This document shows, piece by piece, positions 1 through 19,516 of a DNA stretch of 26,055 nucleotides (position 1 is the stretch's first letter; every line of letters starts with the position of its first letter). The notes beneath the pieces are model-generated. The model had not been told where the DNA came from, searched no databases, and worked only from the letters and a program-made list of their open reading frames with translations. A program made the position numbers and the translations under genes. The stretch comes from a virus: the UHGV virus genome UHGV-0272533, one strand, 5' to 3'.

Positions 1-23
1 TTTAATTATATTGTGAGGGCCGC

Positions 24-629
24 ATGATGAATAAAGCTGTATTAAATAGTGAACTCATTGCCATAAAAGCGGGAGACATTATCATTTATAATTATGATGG
101 CGAAACGCGGGAATATATTTCTACATCAACTGAATATCTCGCTGTCGGCGTCGGTATCCCGGCATGTTCCTGTCTGGATGCACCAGGTACACATAAAGCT
201 GGTTATGCAATCTGTCGCTCTGTAGATTTAAATTCATGGGAATATGTGCCAGACCATCGCGGTGAAGTTGTCTATAGTACCGAAACGGGAGATACCAAAG
301 AAATCACAGTTCCGGGTGATTACCCTGAAAATACAACCACTATCGCCCCATTAACGCCATACGATAAATGGGATGGTGAGAAATGGGTGACGGATACCGA
401 GGCACAGCATAGCGCCGCACTAGACGCGGCAGAAGCACAGCGCCAGTCACTGATTAATGCAGCAATGGCTTCCATTAGTCTGATTCAGCTGAAATTACAG
501 GCCGGACGGAAGTTGACGCAGGCAGAAACAACCCGACTTAACGCCGTGCTGGATTACATTGACGCGGTGACGGCAACAGATACCAGCACCGCGCCGGATG
601 TCATCTGGCCTGAACTGCCGGAGGCGTAG
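24..629 (+). CDS. Tail fibre assembly protein (Tfa-like), convergent with the minus-strand tfa
   Basis: 201 aa; ATG at 24 preceded by GAGGG. C-terminus (LNAVLDYIDAVTATDTSTAPDVIWPELP) is the typical Tfa C-terminal motif and is shared with the ORF at 601..1044. 3' ends of the two genes overlap at 601..629. Confidence 0.7.
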   Translation: MMNKAVLNSELIAIKAGDIIIYNYDGETREYISTSTEYLAVGVGIPACSCLDAPGTHKAGYAICRSVDLNSWEYVPDHRGEVVYSTETGDTKEITVPGDYPENTTTIAPLTPYDKWDGEKWVTDTEAQHSAALDAAEAQRQSLINAAMASISLIQLKLQAGRKLTQAETTRLNAVLDYIDAVTATDTSTAPDVIWPELPEA

Positions 630-1044
630 TCCATTCAATATCTGGCGCACTGGAAGTATCGACCATTTCCAGTGCGTCCAGATAATCCAGCCACAAATTA
701 TATTGCACCAGTTCCTCACCTTTCAGACGACCAATTGATGCTTTACCTGGCCATTGTTTACTGTTGATGTATTCGTTGGCCTGATTAATCAATTGCTGCT
801 TTTTAGTTTCGGCTGATGCAATTTGTTCTTCACGTGTTGGTGGAGGAATATCTGCCCATGCAGGCAGTCCATCCTCTCCGACACATCTGTATTTTCCTTC
901 TGGTGGTGTATCATAGAAATATTCCCTGAAAATTACTTCGTCTATATCAACACCTTTTTCTTCAGGCCACTCACCTTTTTCAACATAAAGAGACTGAAGT
1001 TCATAAGGATATGCTAGGTTGTTTACGTACAGATATTTCATCAT
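601..1044 (-). CDS. tfa: Tail fibre assembly protein (Tfa)
   Basis: 147 aa; start ATG overlaps the stop of the upstream tail fibre gene (TAATG at 1042..1046). C-terminal LWLDYLDALEMVDTSSAPDIEWTTPP motif is typical of lambda-type Tfa chaperones. Confidence 0.75.
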   Translation of the reverse strand: MMKYLYVNNLAYPYELQSLYVEKGEWPEEKGVDIDEVIFREYFYDTPPEGKYRCVGEDGLPAWADIPPPTREEQIASAETKKQQLINQANEYINSKQWPGKASIGRLKGEELVQYNLWLDYLDALEMVDTSSAPDIEWTTPPAVQAR

Positions 1045-1853
1045 TACCAGCCCTTAGCGAAAAACGCACCACCTTCAAGACCATAATTGCAGTGAGCTAT
1101 GAAGCCGGTAGTGCTCCAGTTGGTCGCCCCCCACATATTCCCGCCCCCGAAACCACCATCGAACACAATTACAATGCCCGGTGTATGTGTAAATGGAATC
1201 GGGAATGAAACATTGGCGGATACAGGCCCGAGTTCACCAGGAAAACTAATTCGTCCCCACTGTTCAATTGAACCATCTGGCATTTTTCGCCAGCCTGAAC
1301 CTGATGCATATGATGACATATCAGGTATCTGATTTTCCCCAGTTCCCACATTCCGTTTTGCCGCTTCTCCCAAACCAAGGTTTGTGCGAGCGTCTGCGGC
1401 ATTCGTTGCGCCGGTTCCGCCGTCTGCGACAGTAACCGCACCGTTGCTCCCTTTCTGTGCCAGTTTACCGATGCCAGGGATGGTTACGGTGGTCCCGTTG
1501 ATGGTAACGGTGATGGTCTGGTTTGCTGAGGTAGTGGCGAACGTCTCCCACGCGCCAATGTTCTCGTCATACTCTTTGATGAGCTGCGACATTGCCTGGG
1601 CCAGTCCGTCCACGGAGATAATGTCTGACACCAGAATGGCGTATTTCTGGCCGCTCAGCGCCGGGGAAGCGGCAGGCGTAACCGTCATTGACGTGGCGCT
1701 GTTCACGGATGAAATCTGGAACAGTTGCACCGGGTTAGACATCACGATAATTGTCTGGCCAGCGCGAACCTGGCTGGCCGGTGCCGTCCAGTTTGTACCC
1801 GTCCCGGTGGCGGTATTTCCATTAATGGCGATGGTGCCGGTGTTATAAAGCAT
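1044..1853 (-). CDS. Putative tail fibre protein (short, Gly/Thr/Asn-rich)
   Basis: ORF track begins at an alternative TTG at 1868. I prefer ATG at 1851..1853 ([12 protein letters not shown]...) with GGAG 5 nt upstream. Gly/Thr/Ser/Asn-rich composition and position directly upstream of, and coupled to, tfa. Confidence 0.55.
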
Positions 1854-1869
1854 ATTTTCTCCAGGCAAT

Positions 1870-1892
1870 AAAAAAACCCCGCCGGAGCGAGG
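1870..1892 (-). terminator. Rho-independent terminator downstream of the cor-like gene
   Basis: On the minus strand: CCUCGC-UCCG-GCGGGG stem-loop (6 bp including one G-U pair) followed by U7. Sits 22 nt after the lipoprotein stop at 1914. Confidence 0.5.
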
Positions 1893-1913
1893 TTTATGTT
1901 TAAGCGTAGTGGG

Positions 1914-2147
1914 TTATTTGCAGGTTGTTTCGGTAAATGTATTCGCACTTACCCAGCGCCAGCTGAAAGGATATCCAGCCCGGTACTGCGTCTGGTTGTT
2001 TTGTTTACGCACACCGTAAATCTGAACCGTAGTTTCCTGACCGCCAACGATTGCAGTGCCGCTGCAAACTGGTTCCTGTTTCTCAATTACGCCAGCGCAT
2101 CCTGTAAGCATGACAGCGCCTGCCATGCAGATAATCAGTTTTCTCAT
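1914..2147 (-). CDS. cor: Small lipoprotein, Cor-like (putative superinfection-exclusion protein)
   Basis: 77 aa; N-terminus MRKLIICMAGAVMLTGC has a basic n-region, hydrophobic core and lipobox L-T-G-C. Size and position downstream of J are as for Cor of phi80/N15-type phages (from memory; family assignment not verified). Confidence 0.55.
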   Translation of the reverse strand: MRKLIICMAGAVMLTGCAGVIEKQEPVCSGTAIVGGQETTVQIYGVRKQNNQTQYRAGYPFSWRWVSANTFTETTCK

Positions 2148-2204
2148 TTTGATAGTATCCAGAGGAATTCAGTATCTTAGACGATACCAATACAATTCTG
2201 GTGG

Positions 2205-2262
2205 GTATAATTGATTGGATAGATCAATATTATGTTATTGATCGCTAAAAACGATCAATCAA
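2205..2262 (-). promoter_or_regulatory. AT-rich regulatory region upstream of cor with palindromic ATTGATC/GATCAAT motifs and three GATC sites; candidate promoter
   Basis: GATC at 2222..2225, 2240..2243 and 2253..2256. Inverted repeat ATTGATCG(n7)CGATCAAT at 2237..2259 and TTGAT(n8)ATCAA at 2211..2228. On the minus strand, TTGATC (2253..2258), 18-nt spacer, CATAAT (2229..2234) resembles a sigma70 promoter. Confidence 0.3.
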
Positions 2263-2933
2263 TCATAGGCCGCTGTATTTATGGCGGTTAATGAAATGCC
2301 AGTATTCGTTCCCCCTACAGGTGAACCTGTCCCAGTGGAGGTCCCCCCTGCGTTTATCCTCGTATTGGCCCCGTCAAACCTGCATGAAGAATAAGCATTT
2401 ATCGTGTAGATAGTCGGAGGCTGGGTTGAATTATTCACAATGATGGTCTGACCCAACTGAGCAGGTGCAACGGCCCATGACCCGCTCAGCGTCTGGTCAA
2501 TATTTATCCCGCCGTTTGCACCAGGCGTGCCAACCGTCTGCAGGTCTGATAGCACACGGGACTCATTAGTTAACACAAGCTTTCCGCTCGCATCCCATAT
2601 TGCCAAACCCCATTTCGGTAATATCTGCGGGAATATGGCAAAAACGTACGCCGTTAAAGTGAAACTTTGGTTGTAGGGATTAACACCAACAACATACACA
2701 TTACCGCCGTTCCTGTAAGACATAACCGGAGTGGGCTGTGCTGTATTGGTGGTTTTGATAAAAACCATCACTGGGTAATCAGCGTTTAAAGCGATATTTT
2801 GAGCAACCTGCTGAGAACTGCCATTCGCGGATGAATTGAAGGTATACTTCCCGTAAAGACAGAAAGGCGTTGATTGTGGCGTTACAAAGGGATTCCCGTT
2901 ATCCATTAATATCATCGCGCCAAATTCGGCCAT
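2259..2933 (-). CDS. Hypothetical phage protein downstream of J (paralogous to the 2933..3235 product)
   Basis: 224 aa; ATG at 2933 overlaps the upstream stop (TAATG); GGAG 8 nt upstream. Contains AIWDASGKL, similar to IQTWDASGNP in the neighbouring ORF. Function unknown. Confidence 0.5.
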   Translation of the reverse strand: MAEFGAMILMDNGNPFVTPQSTPFCLYGKYTFNSSANGSSQQVAQNIALNADYPVMVFIKTTNTAQPTPVMSYRNGGNVYVVGVNPYNQSFTLTAYVFAIFPQILPKWGLAIWDASGKLVLTNESRVLSDLQTVGTPGANGGINIDQTLSGSWAVAPAQLGQTIIVNNSTQPPTIYTINAYSSCRFDGANTRINAGGTSTGTGSPVGGTNTGISLTAINTAAYD

Positions 2934-3235
2934 TATGCTTTCTCCATGAAAACGACCACCTCACATTTAGAGGCCGGGTAATTACCCAGGCCCACAGAAG
3001 AGGCTGCGGTTACGGTTATTGTGTTCCCTGACGCGACAATGCTCCTCCCTACGCTGTTACCTCCTTCATCAAGTGAGAGCGCAAAACCGACCTTCATTCC
3101 TGAGGGTACAGTGAAAGACCAGCTGCCGGAGTTTTGTCCGGCGGCAAGTTGTATACGTCCAACAACGGAAACGGGCTTGATTCCGTAGTTGTTGGGGTTT
3201 CCCGAAGCATCCCAGGTCTGTATTCCATAAGCCAT
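2933..3235 (-). CDS. Hypothetical phage protein downstream of J
   Basis: 100 aa; start ATG 2 nt after the J stop (TGATATG). Shares the WDASG motif with the next ORF. Function unknown. Confidence 0.5.
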   Translation of the reverse strand: MAYGIQTWDASGNPNNYGIKPVSVVGRIQLAAGQNSGSWSFTVPSGMKVGFALSLDEGGNSVGRSIVASGNTITVTAASSVGLGNYPASKCEVVVFMEKA

Positions 3236-3236
3236 A

Positions 3237-6200
3237 TCAGAACACCCCCGTTAATCGGCCAACCTGCACTCTCAGAACGTTGTTGCCATCCTTGACGCTG
3301 ATTGTCTGGTTGGTCTGCTTCATGGCTCCCTCCCCAGCTGTCGAACCGTAGTTCTCAAACGTCCCGGACTTATCCAGTTTCCAGCCAACAGAGCCGGCAA
3401 CATAATTGTTCGACTGGATGTAATTGCCAATTTTTGCATTGCTTATGGTCCCGTCGCCAATGACTGTATCCCTGATAATGGCCTGGCCATTCTGGATAAC
3501 GAACGGCAGTGTTACAGTCCCGCCGACCATAGTAGTCACGGCGAAACGGTCTGCCAGGAAGATTACCTGTGACTGCATGCCGGAGGGTGTATTTTGAACC
3601 CCAATACCCATCCCGGCAGCGTAATACTGCCCGTTACTGGACACCCCCACCTTGATGTTATACATCGCGCTGAGGTTACCGTTTACATCTGCTATAGCCT
3701 GTGCGTTGACGTTTATCGCTGCACTGTTTTCGCCTGATTTAACAGTCAGAGTGTTGATTTTTGTTGCCGAAGCCTGGGTGAAATCAGCAAGAGTTTCTGT
3801 CAGGTCCGTTGAGTTAGAGATATTGCCACCAGCTTCTGCATCCAGTGTGACCAGCGCGCGTGCGACCGCCTGGCTGGTATCGGCAATCGTAGTATCCACT
3901 CTGTCTATACTGGCACTGTTCCCGGCGTTTGTTGCTGTCTGGGAACGACGACTGACAACCTGCGCCAGCCCATTCTGGATTATCGCAATTGCCGAATTCT
4001 TCACGCCTCCTGTCATACCGTCCATTGAAACGGAAATCTCATCGATTTTTACCGCCGCCTGCGCCAGCCCGTCAGCGTTTTCCTGTATATCTTTCGCCTG
4101 CTGCTCCAGCTCGTCGGCATGGTTTTTGATTTCGTCAGCCATGCCAGCAATTTTTTCATTGCTGTCCACTGCGCTCTCAATCAGATCTTTAAACGTAGCG
4201 GAGTCTTTGATCTCCTCCAGGATCACATCGGTGATATCGGAAACATCGATGCTGGCCTGACCTCGCACCCAGTCGGTATACCCGGACTCGTTTCCCGTTC
4301 TGTCGACCAGTTGCGCGCGATACCAGAAAATCTGCCCTGCCTTAAGACCCATCTGCTGATATTTGCGCTGCGGATAAGGCACATCGGCCAGCAGCATTGC
4401 ATCATCTTCGCTACCGGTCAGGCTGTACTGAATTTCCGTCTTCAGCGTGTCTTCGGTATTCGCCGGGAATCCCCAGTTCAGCTCGATACCGAATACCACG
4501 TTTTCAGAAGCGATGAAGCCAACCGGCTTCGGTGGGTTTCCCACTTTACCCGTCAACGTTTTCTCTTCTGAATAGCCCCACCCAGATGAAATTTCGGCGG
4601 CATTGATGGCACGCACGCGAACCAGGTAGCGTCCTGCATAAATCCCCGGAACATCGAATGACGTGGTGGAGCTGCGCGGCACATTCACCCAGTTCCCGTC
4701 ATTGCGACGCCACTGTGCCTCATACGCGATAGCATTTTTCGCCTGGTCCCAGCTGACGCGCATGGTCTCAACGCTGATATTCTGCTGAACGACAGAAAAC
4801 GAACTGATCGCGATATTAGCTGGCGGGGACTGATTACCGGGCGGAATTACACTTATTGGCCGCTGGTCGACGATGGCGCCGGTATCGATACGGGCATACT
4901 TATCCGGATCGTGAAAAGCACCAGTAATAGAAAACGTGCCGTCGTTATTATCAGAGACGCTGATAACACGATATTGCTGTGCATAAAGCTCGTCGGATTC
5001 GACAATCCATACCGATTCGACTGCCGGTGTTTCGCTGTATGCCGTGGTCACGGTGACAGCCCGGCCGTTTACGCTCTGAATCGTCCTGCTCTGCGATGCG
5101 CCAGACGGCAGGTTAACCATAAGACGGCTTCCGGCAACGGCAGCGGAATCACGATCAAGCGTGATAACGCGACCATTAACCGCGCTGATACGCCCTCCCA
5201 TCACCTTTCCGGATAACAGCTCATCGGCAACCGCGATAATATAACCAGGCTGTGGAATGTTGCCGTCCAGACCAACATCAAACGATACGATGCGATCCTT
5301 GTTATTGGTCTGAATCCCCCAGCGCCCCTTACGGTTTGCCTCAGACTGCCGGGTACAGCCAATGGCTGTCATCTCGAGCTGGTTTGTGCCAAAGCGAGCG
5401 ACGAGCTCCTGTTCAAAAACCGGCTCCATCGCATCTGCGTAGGCATTACCCGGATCTGACCAGGAAACCAGCGCGGTGGTATAGCGGTTTTTAGTGGTGC
5501 TGCCAGAATAGGTAAAGCGGCCGTCAACCACGTTAGCGCGGGTGTAGCTGTAATCAACATCGCGGGGCATATCTGCCAGTGCAACGATTTGATTGCCGCC
5601 CCAGTACGTCATGCCACGGAATATCGCCGCAAAATCACGTAACACGGTATAGGCGTCATTCCTCTCCTGCACGTACACGTTACAGGTATAGCGAGGCTCG
5701 GTGCCGCTACCGCCTTTACCATCAGGAACCAGCTGATCGCAATATTGTGCGACCTGGTAAAGCGTCCATTTATCAATATTTGCCGCCGTCAGGCGGTCGC
5801 CAAGTCCAAAACGGTCGCTCACCACCAGATCGTAAAAAATCCACGCCGGATTGTCCGTCCATGCCCACTTAAACGCCCCCGTCCAGGTACCGCTATAGGT
5901 CCGGGTTTCCGGATCGTAAGTATCCGGCACGCGGATAACGCGCCCGCGCGGTTCACAGGAAATTTGCGGGATGGAGCCGTTAAACTGGCTTGAATCGAAT
6001 TCAATGTACAGCAGCGCGGTGTTTGGATAGCGCAGTTTGGCATCGATTACCTCCGTGTAGCTCTGCAGCGTCATCGTGTCGCCAATTTTCGCACTGTTCG
6101 CATCTGCGGTGAGCTTACGAAGACGTACCGTCCAGGTGCTTCCCGCCTGCGGTAAGTCGATACGGTGGCTGCGTTCGTAGCCTGACGTGGTTTTCCCGGT

Positions 6201-6692
6201 GACGCTGGTATTAAGCACGGTCTGCCAGGTACCGCCATCTGTCTGCAGATCGATAGCGTAATTAATCGAATAGCCGACCAGATCGCCGTCGTCCTCCTGT
6301 TTAAACAGTGATGGCCATTTGAGGCGCAGACGAATGGCTGACAGCTGGGTGTTGGTAAAGGTATGCGTCCAGGCCGTAGCGCTTGAAACTTCGGTACCTA
6401 CGCTGATTTCATTCTCGGTACCGGGGATGCCCTGAATATACTTTTGAGCCTGAGTCCCCGGGCGGAACTCCCATGCCACGCCGCTGAAGTTTTGCGATCC
6501 GTCTGCATTCTCCAGTGGCGTGCCGTCAAGATAGATATCTTTAGCCGTTAACTGCCCCGCAAATTCCCCTTCTCCCAGCGCAACAAGAATCTTGGCCTTC
6601 GCTACGGACTGGAGATCGTCTGGCTGTTCTGTAGGGGTACGGGAACTGGAACTGCCGCCCTTGCGGCCTCTAATCGGAGTGGAAGTAGCCAT
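3237..6692 (-). CDS. J: Tail tip / host specificity protein J
   Basis: 1151 aa, ATG at 6692. Central region has recognisable similarity to lambda gpJ (e.g. ...YTCNVYVQERNDAYTVLRDFAAIFRGMTYW...). The C-terminal end (...VLRVQVGRLTGVF) differs from lambda's. Confidence 0.9.
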   Translation of the reverse strand: MATSTPIRGRKGGSSSSRTPTEQPDDLQSVAKAKILVALGEGEFAGQLTAKDIYLDGTPLENADGSQNFSGVAWEFRPGTQAQKYIQGIPGTENEISVGTEVSSATAWTHTFTNTQLSAIRLRLKWPSLFKQEDDGDLVGYSINYAIDLQTDGGTWQTVLNTSVTGKTTSGYERSHRIDLPQAGSTWTVRLRKLTADANSAKIGDTMTLQSYTEVIDAKLRYPNTALLYIEFDSSQFNGSIPQISCEPRGRVIRVPDTYDPETRTYSGTWTGAFKWAWTDNPAWIFYDLVVSDRFGLGDRLTAANIDKWTLYQVAQYCDQLVPDGKGGSGTEPRYTCNVYVQERNDAYTVLRDFAAIFRGMTYWGGNQIVALADMPRDVDYSYTRANVVDGRFTYSGSTTKNRYTTALVSWSDPGNAYADAMEPVFEQELVARFGTNQLEMTAIGCTRQSEANRKGRWGIQTNNKDRIVSFDVGLDGNIPQPGYIIAVADELLSGKVMGGRISAVNGRVITLDRDSAAVAGSRLMVNLPSGASQSRTIQSVNGRAVTVTTAYSETPAVESVWIVESDELYAQQYRVISVSDNNDGTFSITGAFHDPDKYARIDTGAIVDQRPISVIPPGNQSPPANIAISSFSVVQQNISVETMRVSWDQAKNAIAYEAQWRRNDGNWVNVPRSSTTSFDVPGIYAGRYLVRVRAINAAEISSGWGYSEEKTLTGKVGNPPKPVGFIASENVVFGIELNWGFPANTEDTLKTEIQYSLTGSEDDAMLLADVPYPQRKYQQMGLKAGQIFWYRAQLVDRTGNESGYTDWVRGQASIDVSDITDVILEEIKDSATFKDLIESAVDSNEKIAGMADEIKNHADELEQQAKDIQENADGLAQAAVKIDEISVSMDGMTGGVKNSAIAIIQNGLAQVVSRRSQTATNAGNSASIDRVDTTIADTSQAVARALVTLDAEAGGNISNSTDLTETLADFTQASATKINTLTVKSGENSAAINVNAQAIADVNGNLSAMYNIKVGVSSNGQYYAAGMGIGVQNTPSGMQSQVIFLADRFAVTTMVGGTVTLPFVIQNGQAIIRDTVIGDGTISNAKIGNYIQSNNYVAGSVGWKLDKSGTFENYGSTAGEGAMKQTNQTISVKDGNNVLRVQVGRLTGVF

Positions 6693-6703
6693 ATTGCGCC
6701 CAT

Positions 6704-6726
6704 AAAAAAGCCACCCTGAGGTGGCC
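6704..6726 (-). terminator. Terminator-like hairpin between I and J
   Basis: Minus strand: GCCACC-UCAG-GGUGGC stem-loop followed by UUUUUU, 14 nt upstream of the J start codon. Confidence 0.4.
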
Positions 6727-6742
6727 TGAAAGAAGGTTTTAT

Positions 6743-7333
6743 TTACTGCTGATCTTCGACATATATCCCGGCAGAAATAATCGCACCGCCGATTCGCCGG
6801 CGACCATAAAGAAGTGGTACCGGGTAGCCCTGCGCAGCGGTGTTTGTGACCCCGCCAAACGCGTAGGAGGCGCGGTTATCAGAGCTTTGTTTGCTGGCCA
6901 GACCTGCTGGTTGAGGGGAAAGCATCTGGACAACGCCGCCCAGCATGACTGCGGCACCAAGTTTGTAGAAGAATGGTGAAGCCGCAGCCCAGGGCGTGAA
7001 ATTAAGAACCACACCGACAGCAACCAGAACCGCACCTAAAATAGTCTGTAGTACACCCGCTTTTTTACTCCCGATAATGACCGGGACAATGCGGATAACA
7101 TCGCCGGTGACCGGGAAGCCAAGGTCATCAACACCAATATTCTTTTTCCCTTTGAATACGGAATAAGTGAGCCCACGGCGCTGGCTGGAGATCATAAACT
7201 GCTCAAATCCCGGAACCGTCTTTGCCAGCGCAACACTCGCCTCGTTAACGCGGGAAATCAGGCGGTGGTGAACTTTACCGAACGTTTTGCCGAGCACGCC
7301 GCCAAGCTCAATGCGGCTCATGACTTCCTGCAT
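6743..7333 (-). CDS. I: Tail assembly protein I
   Basis: 196 aa; position between K and J; hydrophobic C-terminal half as in lambda gpI; start overlaps the K 3' end. Confidence 0.8.
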   Translation of the reverse strand: MQEVMSRIELGGVLGKTFGKVHHRLISRVNEASVALAKTVPGFEQFMISSQRRGLTYSVFKGKKNIGVDDLGFPVTGDVIRIVPVIIGSKKAGVLQTILGAVLVAVGVVLNFTPWAAASPFFYKLGAAVMLGGVVQMLSPQPAGLASKQSSDNRASYAFGGVTNTAAQGYPVPLLYGRRRIGGAIISAGIYVEDQQ

Positions 7334-8052
7334 GATTCATTCCCCCTTAAATCTTTATAGCGAACGATTTTCATCGTGCGCTCCTGCCAGTATCCGCCAT
7401 AAGGAACACGCTGACTCAGATGCCCGTAAAGATGGTGCAGCAGCATGTTACCCTCCAGTAAAATCCCGGCATGATTCCACTTATCGGCCTGCACCTGCAT
7501 GATGACCAGATCGCCTTCCTGAGGCGGGCCGTCAAACTCCCTGAATCCGCACTCGTACCAGCAGTCCTGATAGAAGTTGTCCGGATAGCTGTTCTCCCAC
7601 CAGGGATAATCGACGCGGTAATCATGGAGTTCGATGCCGTGGGTCTGCCGGAAATAGCTCATTACCAGCCCCCAGCAATCGAAGTGGCCAAGCACGAACG
7701 GGCGCTCCAGCAGCGGCAGTTCCCCGCGCGGCTGAATAGTGCGTAAATCCCCCTCCGGCCAGCTCACAATATGCCAGGGCAGCAGCGTTGCATCACATTG
7801 CGCCTTATCAAGCTCGCTGGCCTGCGTCGTCGCGTCAGGGTGGCTGTGAACAATGGCTACCACCGTCCCCCAGTCTTCGGCAGCTGCGTAGTCTTCGGGA
7901 GAAAGGTGAAAATGTTCTGTCGGCTCTTCAGAAAGGTTGCGGCAGGGGAAATAACGCTCAACCCGGCTTTTCTGCGCCACCACGCCGCAGCACTCTCGCG
8001 GGTATTCCGCAGCGGCATGCACCATGATGGCATCAATGGTTTTCTGACGCAT
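7318..8052 (-). CDS. K: Tail assembly protein K (JAB/MPN-like plus NlpC/P60-like)
   Basis: Start placed at ATG 8050..8052 (MRQKTIDAIMVHAAAEYPRECCGVV...), 1 nt after the L stop. The longer ORF back to 8115 would overlap L by 62 nt. Contains the HSHP motif. Confidence 0.85.
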   Translation of the reverse strand: MRQKTIDAIMVHAAAEYPRECCGVVAQKSRVERYFPCRNLSEEPTEHFHLSPEDYAAAEDWGTVVAIVHSHPDATTQASELDKAQCDATLLPWHIVSWPEGDLRTIQPRGELPLLERPFVLGHFDCWGLVMSYFRQTHGIELHDYRVDYPWWENSYPDNFYQDCWYECGFREFDGPPQEGDLVIMQVQADKWNHAGILLEGNMLLHHLYGHLSQRVPYGGYWQERTMKIVRYKDLRGNESCRKS

Positions 8053-8053
8053 A

Positions 8054-8809
8054 TCAGCTCCTGATAAGGGATGTACCGGGGAAGCCGCCGAACGGCAGCT
8101 CGTTGCTGTCTCCATGCCGGAGTTTGCAGGCCGTCAGCGTACCGTTGCATTCATCCCGCGAAGGATCGTCAACCGGATTATTGTGTTTATCGAAATAGAG
8201 CGTTCCGGCATAGTCGCAGCCGTCGCCGGTGCGGTACTTGTTCCGGATGCACCAGGAACACAGCGAATGCAGCTGCCGCGTCGGTATCATCCGGCCCTGT
8301 AAATCCATCGGACTGGAAAGCGTAAATTCAACAGCTTCATCCGTCTCGGTACTTCTGGCGTCGATATAAAAGACCTTCAGCTTTTCCTGTGACGGGTCTG
8401 CGGTGGGGTTGCCCTGCGGAAAATTTCTGGCGTCCAGATACTTAGCCAGCGTGTCGTGGATACTGACTTTCGCCTGCAGCAGATCGTCATACGCAAGACA
8501 GAGCGCTGAGATCGAGCTGTCCAGGTTCGCCACCGTCAATTTTGGCTGTGGGCTGGTACCGTCTGTGGTCGCCTCAATACCCTCCACCTGACATGGCCAG
8601 GCTTTATATTCCTCCCCCTGCCACCATATGGACTTCGCCGGAAGTTTATTCTCATCCCCGCCTGCGGCTTCAATCTCTTCCGGGGTGTGTGCGATATTGT
8701 GTGCGTGGAAGCGGAGCACATCTGACATACCGAACGCTGTACCATCGACAGAAAAAAGCCGGACTTCATTGCCCGGCTCAAGTTTTTGATAATCAGCATT
8801 AAGACTCAT
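8054..8809 (-). CDS. L: Tail tip protein L
   Basis: 251 aa; position and Cys-rich C-terminus consistent with lambda gpL; start overlaps the M stop. Confidence 0.85.
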   Translation of the reverse strand: MSLNADYQKLEPGNEVRLFSVDGTAFGMSDVLRFHAHNIAHTPEEIEAAGGDENKLPAKSIWWQGEEYKAWPCQVEGIEATTDGTSPQPKLTVANLDSSISALCLAYDDLLQAKVSIHDTLAKYLDARNFPQGNPTADPSQEKLKVFYIDARSTETDEAVEFTLSSPMDLQGRMIPTRQLHSLCSWCIRNKYRTGDGCDYAGTLYFDKHNNPVDDPSRDECNGTLTACKLRHGDSNELPFGGFPGTSLIRS

Positions 8810-9153
8810 GGTGCAAATGCCTGTTCAAACGTTGCGGTTACGGTTATCACTTTTACGTTTTTAACCACCTTTTTGAGCGTGTCAGCCTCGACACGCCACA
8901 GCGCGGTATCGCCGAAAGGCGGAGTGAAAATAAACGACTTCACTTTATGCCGCCGAAGGAAGGCATGAATTTCATTCGCTGTAGTCGGATCCCCTGAGAA
9001 GGAAAATTCATAGGTGCGAATTTCATCATTCAGACCTGAGCCGCTCACCTGTGCGTAACCGTCGCCGAACTGGACCTTCCTGACGGTGTCTTTGCTTCCC
9101 TCTGTGGGCTGGCTGGAGACCTTAATACCCCAGGAGAATGTTTCTATCGTCAT
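8806..9153 (-). CDS. M: Tail tip protein M
   Basis: 115 aa; KVQFGDGY motif comparable to lambda gpM (KVRFGDGY); immediately downstream of H. Confidence 0.8.
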   Translation of the reverse strand: MTIETFSWGIKVSSQPTEGSKDTVRKVQFGDGYAQVSGSGLNDEIRTYEFSFSGDPTTANEIHAFLRRHKVKSFIFTPPFGDTALWRVEADTLKKVVKNVKVITVTATFEQAFAP

Positions 9154-9158
9154 AACTG

Positions 9159-11675
9159 TTACCTGCGATTGTTCGCATTCCAGATAAGCCCACCGGGCTG
9201 GATTGCCCTGGCGATACCATCGTTGACAGATTTGTTAATCACCTGCTGATACGCCTTACCCAGCCTGTCTCCGTCATTTTGCTGCTGTGCGCCACCGGAG
9301 GCATTCTCGACGGTCACAGGCGCGTACACGCTCACCCCGAAAGGTGCTGCAGCGGGACCTGTGCCACTGCCCCCGACAAGCCCTCCTGTGGCGTACCCTT
9401 TCATCATCCGGTAAAGGTTGCCGACGCCGATCCGACTGGTAGCCTCTTTGGTGAAAACAAATTCGCCACGGTGAACGACACCTGCGGGTTCATATTTCCC
9501 ACCCGAACCGGTGAATCCCCCGCTGGCAAACCCCAGCGCCGTGGAGGCTGAATCTACCAGTCCGGTCATTGCCTGCTTCAGCAGAATTTGTGTCAGCATG
9601 GAGAGCGTGGAGCGGGTAAAGTCAGCCCAGTCAGCCTTTCCGCGTGTCAGCATGTCTGCCATATTCTGCCCGATGCCATCAAACGTACTGGTGGCAACCG
9701 ACTTCATCTGGCCATAAGCATCTGAAGCGGAATCAACATAATCTGCCCATGCGGATTTGGCCCCGGATTGCCAGTCGTCCCGCAGCTTATCCTGCTCGGC
9801 GTAATACGCCTGCAGCGCCTGCAGCTCATTCTGATAACCAGCGTCGTTCTCCGAACCGCCACCATTTTTCCAGCCCTGAAGAAGCTGGGCCTCCTCATTG
9901 CGGCGTTGTGCTGCACGACTGCTCATACCAGCACTTTCCGCAAGGGCTCGGGTTTTCTCGCCGATCTGCGTGACGTATTTTTGGGACGTATCCTGCAGGC
10001 GGTTAAGCCGCTCCTGCGCCACTATCTGATCGCCAAGCTTCGCGTTCAGCTCTGCACGGGAAAGCACCTCGCTTTTACTGGCCAGCAGGGATTTTTCCTC
10101 GGCAGAAAGCGTCCGGGTCTTCGCGGCTTCTTCCAGAACCGTAAACCGGGACTGTTGACGCCACAGCTCCTGACGCTGCTGGCTGATGGTGTCATTGATC
10201 CCCTTATGCTCCTGCAGGGTGCGCAGCTGTGCTTCCAGCTCCATCGTCTGGGCGCTGGCCGTATCGGTTGCACGGGTACCGGCAGGTGTCCTGACTGCAG
10301 GGGTTTTCTTCGGTTTTTTGAGGGTGTCTTCGTACTCTTTTTTCGCGGCGGCCAGGTTGATGTTGTAGTCAGCCTGGAGGATCCGCCCCTCTTTCAGAGC
10401 CTTATTGAGCTCGCTCTGCCTGGCCGTGTATTTCTCAAGGGCAGTTTGGGTTTTGGCATAGTTGGCCTGAGCCTGCGCGGCATATTTCTGACGATCGGAC
10501 TCTGCGACCGCTTCACGGGAAGCATTCTCTTCGTTCGCTTTGGCAATACCAGCCTGCTGCTGCGCCATATCCAGTGCCAGTCTGGCCGTTTCACGATCAT
10601 TCCAGAACCGGGCGCGGGCCTCATCATTCACATAATGATCGCCTTTACGCAGATTCCAGATTTCATCAGCCTTTTTAAACGCGGCCTGGGCTTTTGCCAC
10701 CATCTCCTGGGCGGTGTCAGGTCTGCCAATATCAAGTGCAGCATCCCACATCGACTTGAAGGCACGCTTCAGGGAATCCGCTGAAGACTCAATCGTCCCC
10801 ATATTGTCGCGGATGGCCTTGGTCTGATCGTTGAATCCGGCAGTAGCAGCCTGATTAGCCGCCTGCAGTGCGCCAGCCTCATCACCGGCACGCTGCAGCT
10901 GTGCCACATGGGCAATCTGTTCGGCCGTAACGTTGTGGAACTGCTGAGCCATCGCGATCAGGCCTGATGTAGGGTCAGTAGTGAGCTTGCCGTATGCGGC
11001 TGCGACTTTTTCCACCGGCACGCCGGAGGCATCAGTAAATCGCGCCACCGCCTGGCTCATTTCATCAAAGCGCGAACTCGCGCCCACCCCCGCGTTGATA
11101 AGCTCGCTCAGGGCTTCGCTGGTCTGATTGAACGTCAGCCCCGCTGCCTGGCCGTTTCGTGCCAGCGCCAACATACGATCGGCAGTCAATCCGGCCGTGT
11201 TCCCCGATAGTACCAGCGTTTTGTTGAAGTCAGATAGTGTGGATGAGCCCTGGTACCAGGCATAGAACAGCGTACCCGTTGCGGCGGACAGCGCACCGAT
11301 GCCGACCATCAACGGTGAGATCGTACCCAGTAAGGCCCGGAATGTTGGTATTATCCCGCCAAAGGAGTCCTTAACCTGACCGCCCTGCTGAAGCAGAATC
11401 AGCCATGGGTTCTGCCCGCCCGCTAGCTGCGTAGCTATATCGGTAAACTGCGCCGGAAGCATACGCATTGCTGCGTTATACTGGCCTATTGAAATACCCG
11501 CCTTGCGCGCGGCGTTCTCCTGGCGGCTAAAGGACTGCTGGATCCGTAGCGCTTCGTCGTTCGCCGCGCTGCCAGTCTGCTTTAATTCTTTTTTGACGTA
11601 GTTAAGCTGCTCGTTAAATTTCGTCGAGTTAACGTCAAGGTTAACGACCAGATCACCCACTGCCGTCTGGGCCAT
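9159..11675 (-). CDS. H: Tail tape measure protein H
   Basis: 838 aa; Ala/Gln-rich coiled-coil-like central region, Gly-rich C-terminus; position after G-T. Confidence 0.9.
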   Translation of the reverse strand: MAQTAVGDLVVNLDVNSTKFNEQLNYVKKELKQTGSAANDEALRIQQSFSRQENAARKAGISIGQYNAAMRMLPAQFTDIATQLAGGQNPWLILLQQGGQVKDSFGGIIPTFRALLGTISPLMVGIGALSAATGTLFYAWYQGSSTLSDFNKTLVLSGNTAGLTADRMLALARNGQAAGLTFNQTSEALSELINAGVGASSRFDEMSQAVARFTDASGVPVEKVAAAYGKLTTDPTSGLIAMAQQFHNVTAEQIAHVAQLQRAGDEAGALQAANQAATAGFNDQTKAIRDNMGTIESSADSLKRAFKSMWDAALDIGRPDTAQEMVAKAQAAFKKADEIWNLRKGDHYVNDEARARFWNDRETARLALDMAQQQAGIAKANEENASREAVAESDRQKYAAQAQANYAKTQTALEKYTARQSELNKALKEGRILQADYNINLAAAKKEYEDTLKKPKKTPAVRTPAGTRATDTASAQTMELEAQLRTLQEHKGINDTISQQRQELWRQQSRFTVLEEAAKTRTLSAEEKSLLASKSEVLSRAELNAKLGDQIVAQERLNRLQDTSQKYVTQIGEKTRALAESAGMSSRAAQRRNEEAQLLQGWKNGGGSENDAGYQNELQALQAYYAEQDKLRDDWQSGAKSAWADYVDSASDAYGQMKSVATSTFDGIGQNMADMLTRGKADWADFTRSTLSMLTQILLKQAMTGLVDSASTALGFASGGFTGSGGKYEPAGVVHRGEFVFTKEATSRIGVGNLYRMMKGYATGGLVGGSGTGPAAAPFGVSVYAPVTVENASGGAQQQNDGDRLGKAYQQVINKSVNDGIARAIQPGGLIWNANNRR

Positions 11676-12008
11676 AGCGCACGCCTCCTGAAATACCTGC
11701 AGCCTTCGCCATCAGCGTATCGTCATCCGGCTCATCAACGTCGATGCTTTCCGATACAGGGGAAAGGATGCTGAAACTGTCCGGTGTTAATTCCGGATCA
11801 GCAAAAAACAGGGTTGAGATGGTGTAGAGCAAACCGGAGAAATGAGCATCCAGCTGCGCATCATGAAAGTAATTGTCCTGGTAGAAGATTTTCCAGTCGC
11901 CGTATTCCGTTGAGGACATGCCAGCAAGCATGGCACGCCAGTCCGGGCGACCGAACTCACGCGCCAGTTTCATGGCAAACTTCAGCTCACTGGCGAGGGC
12001 TTTTCCGC
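11653..12008 (-). CDS. T: Tail assembly chaperone T frame, expected to be made only as a G-T fusion by -1 frameshift
   Basis: The -1 frame relative to G is open from just upstream of the G stop down to 11653. The T-frame stop constrains the shift site to about 12000..12018. Slippery-like run G-GAA-AAG at 12000..12006. Confidence 0.6.
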
Positions 12009-12404
12009 AGTAACAGGTTCAGCGGGTTCATTACGTTCTTCACCGGGCTCAGCCTGGTCATCAGTGACCGGCGCAATCATCCCGGACAGGAGTTTCACCT
12101 TATATTCGGCTTCGGCAACAAGTTCGGTCGGCCATGTCTGCATGACCTCATCCTGAATCTGCTCCACTTCCGCCGCCGCGTTTTCTCCCTGCGATCCTTT
12201 AAGCGCGTGGCCATGCCAGAGTGACATTGCCACCAGATATGCTCCACTCTTCACGGTAAGGGTAATGGCAGCCTGAAAATCACCAGCTTCAACCGCCTCA
12301 AGTTGTTTCAGGTATTCGAGGTATTCAATACGCTGCAGCGCCGACAGCTGGAACAATGTGACGCTGCTGCCGTTACTTTCAAGCAGCTCGCTCTTTAGAA
12401 ACAT
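11982..12404 (-). CDS. G: Tail assembly chaperone G
   Basis: 140 aa, same length as lambda gpG; ATG at 12404 with GGAG 6 nt upstream; similarity to lambda G (e.g. AMSLWH). Confidence 0.85.
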   Translation of the reverse strand: MFLKSELLESNGSSVTLFQLSALQRIEYLEYLKQLEAVEAGDFQAAITLTVKSGAYLVAMSLWHGHALKGSQGENAAAEVEQIQDEVMQTWPTELVAEAEYKVKLLSGMIAPVTDDQAEPGEERNEPAEPVTAEKPSPVS

Positions 12405-12440
12405 AATTACTCCGGGGGAACGGGGCTTTCGCCCCGGTTA

Positions 12441-13178
12441 TCAGGAAACAGTGACTTTGCAGATCGCCACAAAGTTACCGTCATTGCTCATTACGATGAT
12501 CTCGACGGTGCCTGCCGCCACGCCGGTAACAGTCAGGGTATTGCCGCTGACGGTGACCGTTGCTTTTGACGGATCAGAACTGGCTACGCGGAAAGACTTA
12601 TCTGAAGCACTTGCTGGCAGGACAGAAACAACCAGTTGCGTCGTGGCCGCGACAGCCACAGCCGCCGTGGATTTATCCAGGCTGATCCCCGTAACGGCAA
12701 TCGGCGCGGTACCACTGTCTTCGGCCAGCGATGGTTTGCCATTGTTGGTGATTTTTGCCGTGCGGGTCATGACCTCTTTAGACGAGATGGTCTTGCCGAG
12801 ACTGCTCACCCAGCCCTTAAAGACATCGACAACACCATTCGGATATTTGATTTTATACCCCTTCACGGTGCCTTCATCGAACCAGTTCACCAGGTCCTGC
12901 TGACCGGAATCCTCCGGCATCCATGCGAGCGTCAGGTTTGTTTCACCGGCTGATTTCTGCCCCTGCATCGTTGATGTCCAGTCGGCATTCTCATCATCGA
13001 TGTAGGTGTCATCTTCCGATTCAGCTGTCAGTTCTCCGGGCTGCAGGTCTTTAATCTTTGCCAGGCGCAGCCAGTCAACGTCTGAAAGCGGATTGGCGTA
13101 TGGATCACCAGTTCCGGTGTAAACCCAGAGGGTGGTACCAGCACCTTTTGTTGGTGCCAGCGGGTTTGGTGTGGCCAT
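12441..13178 (-). CDS. V: Major tail protein V (with C-terminal Ig-like domain)
   Basis: 245 aa; strong similarity to lambda gpV ([24 protein letters not shown]...). Confidence 0.9.
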
Positions 13179-13185
13179 AGGGTCC

Positions 13186-13584
13186 TCACATGTCGTAAGT
13201 AATGGAATATTTCAGGTCGGCAGAACTCCACAGCGCCATATCGTCATCGCGCTGGTAGTCATAGCCCTGCTGAACCATTGTGGTGATAAGAGATTCAAGC
13301 CCCGGAACCTCTGCGAGAACCGGATACACTCTCGTCTCCATCCAGTCATCCAGATCAGAATCAGGTACCTGAGCCTCAAGAAAGACTTCGATATGCAGAA
13401 TGGCCTGCCAGCTATCGGCGTCCAGTTCTTCCCCTGTGTATTCCGCATCTGTCAGGTAGACGGCAACAGCGGGAAAATCACCCTCTTCGAGCACTGCAGG
13501 TCTGCCGTCAAAATAAATGACATCAGTACCAATCGCGCTTTCCAGCGCGTCAATAATCACCTTGCGAATATCGCTGTGTTTCAT
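13186..13584 (-). CDS. U: Tail terminator protein U
   Basis: 132 aa; similarity to lambda gpU (FDGRPAV...[18 protein letters not shown]); start overlaps the Z stop (ATGA). Confidence 0.85.
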
Positions 13585-14135
13585 CGTGTCAGAATTAACC
13601 TGAGTTGGTTGGTAAGGGATGCCCGGAGCTCTTTGGGCATATCTGACTCCATGAGCTTCGGCAGTTCTTCTTTAAATGCCGTAGTTAATGGAGCTGCCAG
13701 CGGGATGCTGACCACTTCAATGGGGTAACGAGGTTTTGAAGTCCGCCTCATGACATGCCAGCGACCATTTTTAAGTTGCTGGATAAAGCCGCCCGGAAAA
13801 CGAAATGGCCCTATGCGCAGAACACTGTTGGCCCCTTTCTTGTCCCGTTTTCTGCGGGAAAGTCGCACGCTTGCGGTACCGAGTTTAATGGCCGGTAAAT
13901 TTCCCCGGTTTACCCGGATAAGTGCACGAGGTCTATTGACCGTCGCACGCTTCACCCTGGCGCGTTGCTTTACCAGTTTTCGCGGTACGCGCGTATCTTT
14001 TGATACGACTGCCACGCTGCGGCTGACGGCCCGGTTTGCCACGCGGTTAACGGCCTGCGCCGATGCCCGCGGAACAGCCGTTTTGCTGATGCTGTTAAGG
14101 TTTTCTATGGCCTGTTCAAGGCCTTTTATGGACAT
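13581..14135 (-). CDS. Z: Tail completion protein Z
   Basis: 184 aa; basic, Arg-rich; position between FII and U as in lambda. Confidence 0.8.
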   Translation of the reverse strand: MSIKGLEQAIENLNSISKTAVPRASAQAVNRVANRAVSRSVAVVSKDTRVPRKLVKQRARVKRATVNRPRALIRVNRGNLPAIKLGTASVRLSRRKRDKKGANSVLRIGPFRFPGGFIQQLKNGRWHVMRRTSKPRYPIEVVSIPLAAPLTTAFKEELPKLMESDMPKELRASLTNQLRLILTR

Positions 14136-14144
14136 ATGCGCTCC

Positions 14145-14498
14145 TTAACGGCGACGCGAAGATGCAGGTGGAGAGCCGTTACCCAGACAGATATGACAGG
14201 AGCCACAGTCATCCGGACCAATACGTTCAACCCAGAATTGCCGACCGTTAATCGTCAGCGTGTCCATACGCTGCAGCTGCCTGACAGTGGCGGTTTCCAC
14301 AAACAGGGTCGGGCTGGTTCCTTCAACACGAATCCCGGCACCGGCATATCCGATATTTTCTGGATCATCGAATACACCGACCAGGGTGGCACCTGACAAA
14401 GCGCCTGACATCACCTTTGCCTCTGTGCCCATCACACCACGGATAGCGCTATCAGCTCGCGACATAGCCTCGTCAAAGAGATTATCGAAATCAGCCAT
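14145..14498 (-). CDS. FII: Head-tail connector protein FII
   Basis: 117 aa, same length as lambda gpFII; N-terminus MADFDNLFD matches. Confidence 0.85.
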   Translation of the reverse strand: MADFDNLFDEAMSRADSAIRGVMGTEAKVMSGALSGATLVGVFDDPENIGYAGAGIRVEGTSPTLFVETATVRQLQRMDTLTINGRQFWVERIGPDDCGSCHICLGNGSPPASSRRR

Positions 14499-14508
14499 GT
14501 GGCCCCCT

Positions 14509-14916
14509 TCAGACTTCGAAAGCCAGCCCCTTTGCGATCAAGTCGTCGGCATCCTGTTCAGATACGCGGATAATCACACCAGGCTCTACGATAGATACCG
14601 GCTCGTTACGCGTGGCATGCAGAGCGTCAATATGCAGGGTGGCCAGCGTTTCTACTGATACCAGGTCACCCGTTGTGGCCGATTCCGTTTTTACTTTTGC
14701 CACGTTAGCAACATTGTTGTCGGTGCTGTCGGTGCTGTCGGAAGCATTCTGCACGCCGTTTTCACCGTCAACTGACCCGGCATTGCCATCCAGTTCCTCT
14801 TCAAGCTCAGCAATACGCATCGTCAGTTCCTGAATGGTGCCGCTGGTACTGACCTCGCGGTTAAGCTGGGTCCCAAGTTCATTCAGGCGGGCGACCAGCT
14901 TTTCTTTTTCTGTCAT
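14509..14916 (-). CDS. FI: DNA packaging protein FI
   Basis: Start chosen at internal ATG 14914..14916 (MTEKEKLVARL...) with GGAG 8 nt upstream. The longer ORF to 14952 lacks an RBS and would run into a stem-loop. Acidic middle region as in lambda FI. Confidence 0.7.
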   Translation of the reverse strand: MTEKEKLVARLNELGTQLNREVSTSGTIQELTMRIAELEEELDGNAGSVDGENGVQNASDSTDSTDNNVANVAKVKTESATTGDLVSVETLATLHIDALHATRNEPVSIVEPGVIIRVSEQDADDLIAKGLAFEV

Positions 14917-14961
14917 GGGAAATACTCCAGAAAGGTGGCCCGACAGGGCCACTGGGGGAAG

Positions 14962-15987
14962 TTATGCCAGTTTGACGGAGACGAATGCGTCAGGGTCTGG
15001 CAGCAGCATCAGCGGAGCTGACTGAATCATGGTGAATTCGCGCGCCGGATCCCCCGACTGCACCCAGTTTTTCGGGTAGCGTGTCGAGGCATTGATACCT
15101 TCGCGCTGGGCATCAGCATCAAGAATGCAGCCATAGGTACGCAGGCCACGAGCCTGGGTATTCCCCAGCACCATTGTCAGGTCCGGCAGATAATTCTTTT
15201 TGACGTCGTTTTCGACGTACTGGCCGGAGTACACCACGATGGCCACATCGCCAAACATCCCCTTGTATGAAACAGCCATACCCAGGTCTTTCACGGCAGT
15301 TTCCAGCTCAGAGTTAGAACCACGACGCGTATCCAGCTTCTTCTCAACAGCCTTGAAGGAACGGAACAGCGCCCAGCCTTTCGGATCGAACACAATGATG
15401 TTGACCACACCGCTGGCGTTGAGCGCGTAGGCTTCAATGTCATCGGTCGGGTCATACGTTTCTTTGTCGCGGGTTGACCATGCAGCCGCACCGGCCTGGA
15501 CAATGTTGTTACCAGCGCTGCGGCCCATATCGACTTCAACAGGCTCGAACGCTTCCCCGGTCATGGTGTATTTACCGCTGAGCACCGCCGAAACAGCCTG
15601 TTTCTCTTCGACCTGAGCAATCGCCAGCTCTTCATCCTTCATGTTCTGAAGGATAATGCGGCGACGGCGATAGACCGGGTCAGCGAGATTCTGCGGATCC
15701 TCATCCGGCAGGCGGCGGAGAGTCATCAGTGGGTTAACTTCGTGTTTCGGCTTCACATAACCCGGCGTGAATTCAGACGTGCTGCCGCCACGGGAGCGGA
15801 TCACTTTGCCGGAGACAATCGGCGAGACGTAAAGCGCCATATTGACCAGGCCAGGAATTTGCGACAGGTAAACCTTCTCTGTACTGAAGGGATAGGTTTC
15901 GCGGAAAAAGATACGCAGGAAAAGCGGATCGAATTTGAATTTCTTCTCATTGACCGCCAGCAGTTGGGCAGTGGTGTAAACGGACAT
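14962..15987 (-). CDS. E: Major capsid protein E
   Basis: 341 aa; near-collinear similarity to lambda gpE (MS.YTTAQLLA.NE.KFKFDPLFLR.FFRE.YPF.TEKVYLSQIPGLVNMALYVSPIVSG). Confidence 0.95.
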   Translation of the reverse strand: MSVYTTAQLLAVNEKKFKFDPLFLRIFFRETYPFSTEKVYLSQIPGLVNMALYVSPIVSGKVIRSRGGSTSEFTPGYVKPKHEVNPLMTLRRLPDEDPQNLADPVYRRRRIILQNMKDEELAIAQVEEKQAVSAVLSGKYTMTGEAFEPVEVDMGRSAGNNIVQAGAAAWSTRDKETYDPTDDIEAYALNASGVVNIIVFDPKGWALFRSFKAVEKKLDTRRGSNSELETAVKDLGMAVSYKGMFGDVAIVVYSGQYVENDVKKNYLPDLTMVLGNTQARGLRTYGCILDADAQREGINASTRYPKNWVQSGDPAREFTMIQSAPLMLLPDPDAFVSVKLA

Positions 15988-16000
15988 AGATTTTTCCCGT

Positions 16001-16024
16001 AAAAAAAGCCGCGCAAGCGGCTTT
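16001..16024 (-). terminator. Intrinsic terminator-like hairpin between D and E
   Basis: Minus strand: AGCCGC-UUGC-GCGGCU stem-loop followed by UUUUUUU, ending about 14 nt upstream of the E start. Confidence 0.45.
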
Positions 16025-16054
16025 TATGAATGATGATGGTTGTAGAAATGCGGA

Positions 16055-16387
16055 TTAAACGATGCTGATTGCAGTACCGGCGAACGCGTTACGTTTAATG
16101 TTGTCGTCGGTGACGGCAGATGGCCAGAGGACATCTTCAATACGGAAAGAGCCAGATTTGTAATATGCCAGTTCCGCGCTGTTCTGGTCTGCGGTTACAG
16201 CCAGGATGCCCATTGCCGCGCCAGCATGAGCACCATCCCAGACGGTCAGCTTGCCAGAAGTGGCATCCAGCATGAGCGGCGTCATGGCTGGAGTGGAAGC
16301 CGTCAGTTCGCCAGGACCATACGCAGTGTGCGCCGGGTCGCTGTTACCGAGCGGCTGGTTATGTGTGAAAACTTCAGTAATTGCCAT
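16055..16387 (-). CDS. D: Head decoration protein D
   Basis: 110 aa; similarity to lambda gpD (GNSDPAHTA...PAMTPLMLD...[10 protein letters not shown]). Confidence 0.9.
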
Positions 16388-16396
16388 GATAGCCTC

Positions 16397-19313: not shown

Positions 19314-19516
19314 ACGTAAAACCCTGCTGGCCCCCGGCGTCGTGATGTGGTGCCAACCTGAGATTCAAGGTCAGCAATATATTTTTTGAGATCGCTGACT
19401 GAAGTGGCTGTAAATTCCACTCTTCGACCGTCTTTCTGTACCGTCGCCACGCGCTTTCCCATCATCAGGTCATGTAACGCAGCGCGCGCGGCATCCAGTT
19501 CAGTCTGTGTTGCCAT
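19310..19516 (-). CDS. W: Head-tail joining protein W
   Basis: 68 aa, same length as lambda gpW ([41 protein letters not shown]); start overlaps the A stop (TAATG). Confidence 0.9.

Follow-up and report, generated by a model that had tools for sequence, protein, structure and literature searches.

How does a single phage fibre gene come to be accompanied by two tail fibre assembly (tfa) genes placed end to end on opposite strands? The left end of the 26,055-nt viral sequence analysed here (UHGV virus genome UHGV-0272533; the whole stretch is referred to as the window) raises this question, since a fibre gene and its tfa on the minus strand face a second tfa-like gene on the plus strand. The earlier note compared this layout with the invertible segments of Mu, P1 and e14, and offered a recombination remnant as the alternative. 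We consider it about 85% probable that the locus forms an invertible tail-fibre switch of the Gin/Pin type with two states, like the e14 P segment, placed where a phi80/mEp237-like lambdoid prophage of E. coli ends beside yciI. The prophage, which belongs to the mEp237/phi80/N15/HK225-like backbone group, is apparently complete.

Fibre and chaperone genes at the start of the window

The features of the window discussed in this section are as follows.

1..27, plus strand: end of the silent alternative fibre tip (last 8 codons and the stop TGA at 25..27), Collar-domain, StfE/HK97-Stf-like
24..629, plus strand: tfa', the tail fibre assembly protein (chaperone) gene of the silent tip, TfaE-like; Pfam Caudo_TAP, E 1.6e-31
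601..1044, minus strand: tfa, the chaperone gene of the currently expressed tip, 147 aa; Pfam Caudo_TAP, E 2e-31
1044..1853, minus strand: fibre gene, 269 aa from ATG; Gp53-like_C, E 2.5e-6, and PHROG tail-fibre families
1044..1364, minus strand: variable, currently expressed fibre tip (residues 164-269) with the gp53-like C-terminal domain, inside the proposed invertible segment
1365..1390, no strand assigned: fibre-side crossover site, 26 bp, gix/pix-type
1391..1853, minus strand: constant N-terminal part of the fibre, outside the segment (residues 1-163, counting the crossover site)
1874..1895, minus strand: hairpin resembling a terminator, located between the cor and fibre genes; in mEp237 the element carries the annotation of a rho-independent terminator
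1914..2147, minus strand: cor, encoding an exclusion lipoprotein, immediately next to the fibre gene on its upstream side; NCBIfam lamb_exclu_cor, 9e-42
22312..23049, minus strand: PP2C-type phosphatase gene, overlapping the kinase gene
23046..23825, minus strand: Ser/Thr protein kinase gene; PADLOC mad6 6.5e-44, PD-T4-6 3e-35, Stk2 6e-26

The open reading frames and the Pfam matches, which span the full Caudo_TAP model in both tfa ORFs, confirm that the minus-strand fibre gene and tfa face a plus-strand tfa, with convergent 3' ends overlapping by 29 nt (601..629). An identical 29-nt overlap is found in the RefSeq annotation of E. coli TOK-001 and between tfaP and tfaE of e14 (K-12), and its recurrence therefore marks it as a conserved feature rather than a product of chance. 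In its C-terminal part, tfa agrees with e14 TfaP at 62.6% of 91 aligned residues, and tfa' shares 90.5% identity with e14 TfaE. The product of tfa' has a length of 201 aa, or 200 aa if the ATG at 27 is taken, as gene callers do; exact look-up of the 201-aa form in the protein collection gave no match because the callers begin the gene one codon later. On the plus strand, frame 1 runs without a stop from the first base to the TGA at 25..27, so that the window begins inside another gene, whose stop codon overlaps the start of tfa' (ATGA/TGATG). While the layout read from the sequence alone has stood, that reading had missed both this silent-tip end and the crossover site at 1365..1390.

The Gp53-like_C match covers residues 195-262 of the fibre, and a longer start at a TTG (1868) is probably spurious. 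The identity of the fibre region to other prophages and phages ends at 1365-1390. The constant part of the fibre shares 97-99% identity with mEp237 and with sister prophages bearing other tips, and displays PHROG tail-fibre N-terminal matches. As the strong hairpin lies just upstream of the fibre gene, expression of the fibre presumably depends on antiterminated late transcription.

Towards the other end of the window, the phosphatase and kinase genes are placed between terminase Nu1 and the Rz, lysozyme and holin genes. Judged by its sequence matches, the pair is a candidate prophage-borne exclusion or defence moron.

The silent tip, the invertase and two crossover sites

The sequence to the left of the window was taken from L002, a 69-kb ENA contig found by exact-protein look-up of the fibre. 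L002 differs from window positions 1..1900 by one mismatch, and its lambdoid surroundings agree with those in the window (tape measure, L, K, I, J, two small ORFs and cor). From this near-identity over 1,900 nt we infer that the second crossover site, the invertase and most of the silent tip are present in the source genome as well. Reading leftward, L002 carries a Collar ORF, an opposite-strand 182-aa recombinase, yciI, tonB, yciABC, ompW and trpA. Both the alternate fibre segment and the invertase expected to the left of position 1 are thus found there. The former is a 170-aa Collar-domain ORF ending in FNYIVRAA*, the last codons of which are window positions 1..27; it matches the PHROG 'tail collar fiber protein' at 2.9e-76, with 64% identity to e14 StfE and ∼69% to the C-terminus of HK97 Stf. 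The latter is given below.

L002 12395..12943 (window-relative -541..-1089), minus strand: Gin-like serine invertase, 182 aa, Resolvase and HTH_7 domains

The invertase aligns end to end with the Mu Gin structures 3UJ3 and 4M6F (181 residues, E 1.7e-55), and conserves the catalytic Ser9, R7, D64-R65, R68, the KLDRxGR motif, GGRRPK (GGRxPK) and the STLYKK recognition helix. As in the Gin/Hin/Cin/Pin (Din) switches, whose recombinases have about 180-190 aa with an N-terminal catalytic domain and a C-terminal HTH, it is a small serine recombinase, and its gene adjoins the segment on L002, outside the window. Its identity to the invertase annotated in the lambdoid phage mEp237 is 99.5%, while towards Gin, Cin, PinE and three further E. 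coli prophage invertases it is only 49-54%. This enzyme would be the predicted catalyst of the inversion.

The anticipated inverted crossover sites of about 26 bp are also present, one within the fibre gene and the other beside the invertase. The fibre-side site reads TTCTCCCAAACC AA GGTTTGTGCGAG on the plus strand, with the core dinucleotide at 1377..1378, and CTCGCACAAACC TT GGTTTGGGAGAA in the fibre sense (window 1390..1365), and it encodes NLGLGE within the fibre protein. The motif AAACCAAGGTTT, the core of hix/gix-type sites, lies within it at 1372..1383 and has its sole exact match in the 26-kb window there. The invertase-side site, in the fibre sense TTATAAAAAAGG TT GGTTTGGGAGAA, lies 456-481 nt to the left of the window in inverted orientation. 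Common to both is TTGGTTTGGGAGAAG, and the pair AAACCTTGGTTTGGGAGAAG / CTTCTCCCAAACCAACCTTT is the top-scoring inverted repeat of the region. The outer half-sites are weak, that on the invertase side having GG as against the consensus CC, and the identity shared by the two arms is confined to 15 nt, comprising the inner half and the core. Exactly two sites were found in the 4.2 kb scanned, inverted and with an identical TT core, as is typical of two-site Din switches, in which each 26-bp site has two 12-bp half-sites flanking a 2-bp core. A multi-site system of the Min or shufflon-like type was ruled out, there being two sites only.

When the 1,846 bp between the cores was inverted in silico, the reading frame was kept and the 269-aa fibre became a 323-aa fibre followed by tfa'. 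Residues 164-269 are replaced in this fusion by a 160-residue Collar tip, and each tip is trailed by its own Caudo_TAP gene; tip and chaperone are thereby exchanged together and in frame, as in the Mu G and e14 P segments. The two tips belong to unrelated folds (Gp53-like_C and Collar).

In the proposed mechanism, window positions 1..1390 would form the larger part of the 1,846-bp invertible segment. The constant part of the fibre (residues 1-163) ends in the 26-bp site, and the segment consists of a tip with its Tfa, followed by the opposed second chaperone and tip. The serine invertase, whose gene adjoins the segment on its outer side, would attach to both inverted sites and cleave at the TT in their centre, after which the ends would be rotated and rejoined. 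Such a flip would swap, without loss of the reading frame, the gp53-like tip and the 147-aa Tfa for the Collar-type tip and the TfaE-like Tfa. The phage set free by a population of lysogens would thus have one or the other fibre, and may adsorb to different hosts.

These observations bear directly on the alternative in which the plus-strand tfa would be a dead relic of recombination that takes no part in switching. Prophage tail-fibre regions are often mosaic, and stfE of the K-12 e14 element is annotated as a pseudogene, which would fit such a reading. However, tfa' is untruncated, matches the whole of the Pfam model and has the 90.5% identity to TfaE noted above. It is also translationally coupled to an intact upstream tip, which starts at a crossover site and keeps the frame of the constant part. 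Furthermore, the fused 323-aa protein is found in nature and has 82% full-length identity to the functional tail fibre of HK97. We therefore give the remnant explanation almost no weight.

The invertase belongs to a subfamily that is large in Enterobacterales and has an invariant helix E, GRYNFRNILSAAQYESDLNSERT, as compared to GRFFFHVMGALAEMERELIxERT in Gin, Pin and Cin. The residues conserved in Fis-dependent invertases have been described by McLean et al. 2013 (PMC3798978). The equivalents of the Fis-contact patch (Hin Q151/R154/L155) are E/E/R in the present enzyme, and the basic residues 47/48 are kept, but 51 is not. A scan with the Fis consensus GNNYANNNNNTRNNC at 48-bp spacing located a pair in gin at +46/+94, of which the homologous positions in the 5' end of the invertase gene keep a part only; the same scan of that 5' end gave no convincing Fis-site pair, its matches being too degenerate to tell either way. 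Dependence on Fis, bound in Din switches to an enhancer in cis within the 5' part of the invertase gene, would be expected of a Gin-like enzyme. We suggest separately, as a rather doubtful proposal, that the subfamily is regulated differently, possibly without Fis.

Forward and flipped orientations in public sequence

Both orientations, as the earlier note had recommended looking for, are present in public data. The forward orientation is seen in five contigs (L002-L006). The predicted flipped ORF on the invertase side (MVIKKVGLGE + AAKRNVG..., 116 aa) has an exact match in the public protein collection, and a Logan contig (L008, SRR5216311) carries yciI, the invertase and the flipped segment. 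L008 and the sequence inverted in silico agree at 100% identity throughout their 1,479-nt overlap, whereas L008 matches the forward sequence in two pieces overlapping by the 15-nt repeat. On the fibre side, exact look-up of the 323-aa flipped-state fibre found none in the protein collection, and a homology search revealed a 323-aa E. coli protein (P0166) identical to the predicted fibre at 322 of 323 residues. This protein is encoded on L019 (GCA_048129175.1), a contig that matches window positions 6853..1364 at 100% identity and, beyond 1364, continues into the Collar tip for 378 nt more without mismatch, giving a fibre-side junction that is 100% identical over 5,867 nt. Both flipped junctions therefore exist in public assemblies, and the two orientations that characterize Din switches are seen across samples, the forward and flipped contigs (L002-L006 as against L008 and L019) coming from different ones and no one sample having yielded both states.

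A clean reciprocal inversion at homologous sites is displayed by the complete E. coli genomes MB06232 and VREC0761 (L011/L012 2156..4970), which harbour in opposite orientations a sister prophage at yecD, 98.9% identical to the constant region of the window. In these genomes the inner half-site is polymorphic (GGTTTGG-G/T-AGATA), and the G/T difference travels with the segment, which places the exchange at the core. The cassette of MB06232 and VREC0761 is a different one, with 184-aa 'tail fiber domain' partners of the tips replacing the Caudo_TAP genes and with a PinE-like invertase. The constant part and the present cassette occur together in no complete E. coli genome of the collection, in either orientation; the orientation evidence for this lineage is therefore drawn from draft and metagenome assemblies. 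An exact scan of species-representative genomes with a 28-mer spanning the constant part and the site gave no match, and the metagenome scan returned only two diverged relatives, one with the Collar-type tip expressed (L016) and one with the gp53-type tip (L017). These two are supportive, though outside the exact lineage. A further metagenome contig, L009, was set aside as flipped-junction evidence because it is chimeric, its ends being unrelated sequence.

It may be argued that the two public orientations are assembly artefacts, or products of RecA recombination in which no invertase took part. L009 is visibly chimeric, and in L019 the lambdoid fibre is followed by the cassette and then by a P2-like H gene, where a mis-join via the repeated cassette is possible. 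However, the 15 nt identical between the arms is shorter than the assembler k-mers (megahit-style contig names point to k111/k141, and Logan assemblies presumably use k=31), and reads must therefore span each flipped junction. The flipped junctions also sit exactly at the core dinucleotide, and the G/T polymorphism moves with the segment; moreover, RecA needs far more than 15 bp to recombine efficiently. An origin of both orientations in assembly or RecA activity is thus very improbable.

The switch could also be a fossil, which flipped in the past and is now locked in the strain by the G134W invertase or by its degenerate outer half-sites, so that the gp53-like tip alone is made. The invertase of this lineage has W134, a minority allele found in 3 of the 120 cluster representatives, the other 117 having G; Gly134 is also present in the invertases of mEp237 and strain 1094. 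The nearest isolated phage, mEp237, has a degenerate version of the switch, with cores TC vs TT and a 62-nt tip remnant, and K-12 carries inactive pin relics. On the other hand, W134 contigs are found in both orientations and are otherwise unchanged, the overlap of L002 (forward) and L008 (flipped) being 100% identical, and the invertase is intact, as are all four ORFs of the cassette. The recurrence of W134 in three separate 90%-identity clusters suggests that it is tolerated, and other invertases of the same cell, for example from a P2-like prophage, could act in trans. We regard a locked switch as unlikely, and a two-state switch with ongoing activity in the strain as the more probable condition.

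Known switches and the movement of tip cassettes

Inversion of the e14 segment, for which PinE is the invertase, has been documented in culture (PMC4272514). The present locus has the same gene order as the e14 P segment, namely the ycfK/stfP constant part and tip, tfaP, convergent tfaE, stfE and divergent pinE, and the same inner half-site and TT core as the e14 pix sites (…AAACC TT GGTTTGGGAGAA); together with the shared 29-nt overlap, this supports the earlier comparison with e14. It differs from e14 in an invertase only 54.7% identical to PinE, with another helix E, and in a constant part and expressed tip unrelated to StfP (33.7% over 92 aa). Whereas e14 is a defective remnant at icd, the present prophage appears complete and lies at yciI.

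The G segment of Mu (S-U / U'-S', Gin) and the C segment of P1 (Cin) show the same two-state swap of fibre C-terminus and chaperone, with the invertase just outside the segment and transcribed away from it, and the present invertase aligns with Gin end to end. The crossover also falls at a homologous point of the fibre, in the same position as gixL, where Mu S has NLGLQE and the present fibre NLGLGE. The invertase is, however, ∼51-52% identical to Gin and Cin. The sites of Mu are perfect 26-bp repeats with the core TC (gix, TTATCCAAAACC TC GGTTTACAGGAA), while only the inner half and the core are shared here, and the tfa genes overlap, unlike U and U'. The fibres of Mu and P1 are those of myoviruses, whereas the present one is a siphovirus side fibre.

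Among lambdoid phages, mEp237 (JQ182730) is 97.2% identical to window positions 1372..21958, the match ending at the crossover site, and has the same order of J, two small ORFs, cor, terminator, fibre, invertase and attP (phi80-type, kch-yciI). It differs in a 467-aa fibre, the lack of tfa genes and the presence of msgA where the cassette would be. Both crossover sites and the invertase are kept in mEp237 (L010 6922..6937 and 8868..8934), with the cores TC vs TT, and its segment consists of a long fibre C-terminus, msgA and a 62-nt gp53-like tip remnant, this remnant lying in the flipped orientation. On account of the differing cores and the tip remnant, its switch looks degenerate, and its invertase, as far as the sequence tells, looks like an orphan. 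HK97 Stf (321 aa) and the 323-aa fibre predicted for the flipped state share 82% identity from end to end. To our knowledge, HK97 itself is without an invertase, crossover sites or a second cassette. Two opposed fibre genes and an invertase have been described in another lambdoid phage, LLS, for which the same switch was inferred in 2025 (PMC12315714).

Segments of this type are also carried by P2-like prophages of E. coli, for example that of strain TOK-001 and EPEC prophages (PMC4272514). The segment of TOK-001 is nearly identical to the present one, with 1 mismatch in ∼1,836 nt between the cores (window 1..1381 vs L001 6001..7381). Its neighbours, however, are the constant part of a P2 H gene and the gene of a 188-aa invertase resembling PinE, and identity falls to 51-71% exactly at both cores. 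These sequences point to a recent exchange of the cassette at the crossover sites between a lambdoid and a P2-like prophage. When window positions 1..2400 were compared by megablast with 5,426 complete E. coli genomes, 2,649 matched, and nearly all of the best 30 alignments stop at 1378-1390. Strain 1094 carries the same prophage at the same yciI site with flanks 99% identical, and a different cassette between the same two sites. The near-identical cassette in TOK-001 and the swapped cassette in strain 1094 therefore make the sites joints for the exchange of tip cassettes as well. That tips move between unrelated phages at such boundaries is an idea familiar from the literature on tail-fibre evolution. 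Invertase-mediated recombination between two prophages in one cell could swap whole tip-plus-chaperone cassettes, through an intermediate in which the chromosome is inverted between the prophages. A general role of the crossover sites as universal joints between phages, beyond inversion, is put forward here only as a speculative possibility.

The contig with the flipped fibre junction (L019 5001..8272, contig DBFXKT010000010.1) has a constant part 100% identical to the window, the tip/tfa/tfa/tip cassette, and then P2-like H and baseplate genes, the H gene standing where the invertase and yciI are expected. It represents either a real site-specific recombinant between prophages, that is, a chromosomal inversion, or a short-read mis-join through the shared cassette.

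Switches of the Gin, Cin and Pin type are a long-known mode of phage host change, and the present locus is an ordinary case which leaves the understanding of the mechanism unchanged. What it adds is an intact, apparently working classical host-range switch on a phi80/mEp237-type lambdoid prophage. For annotation, it suggests that ORFs termed 'hypothetical' or 'phage tail protein' beside such invertases may be read as silent cassettes, and the adjoining fibre genes as genes with two products, which would be of use in predicting the host range of prophages. The sharp boundaries of the cassette at the crossover sites further illustrate how tips may move between unrelated phages.
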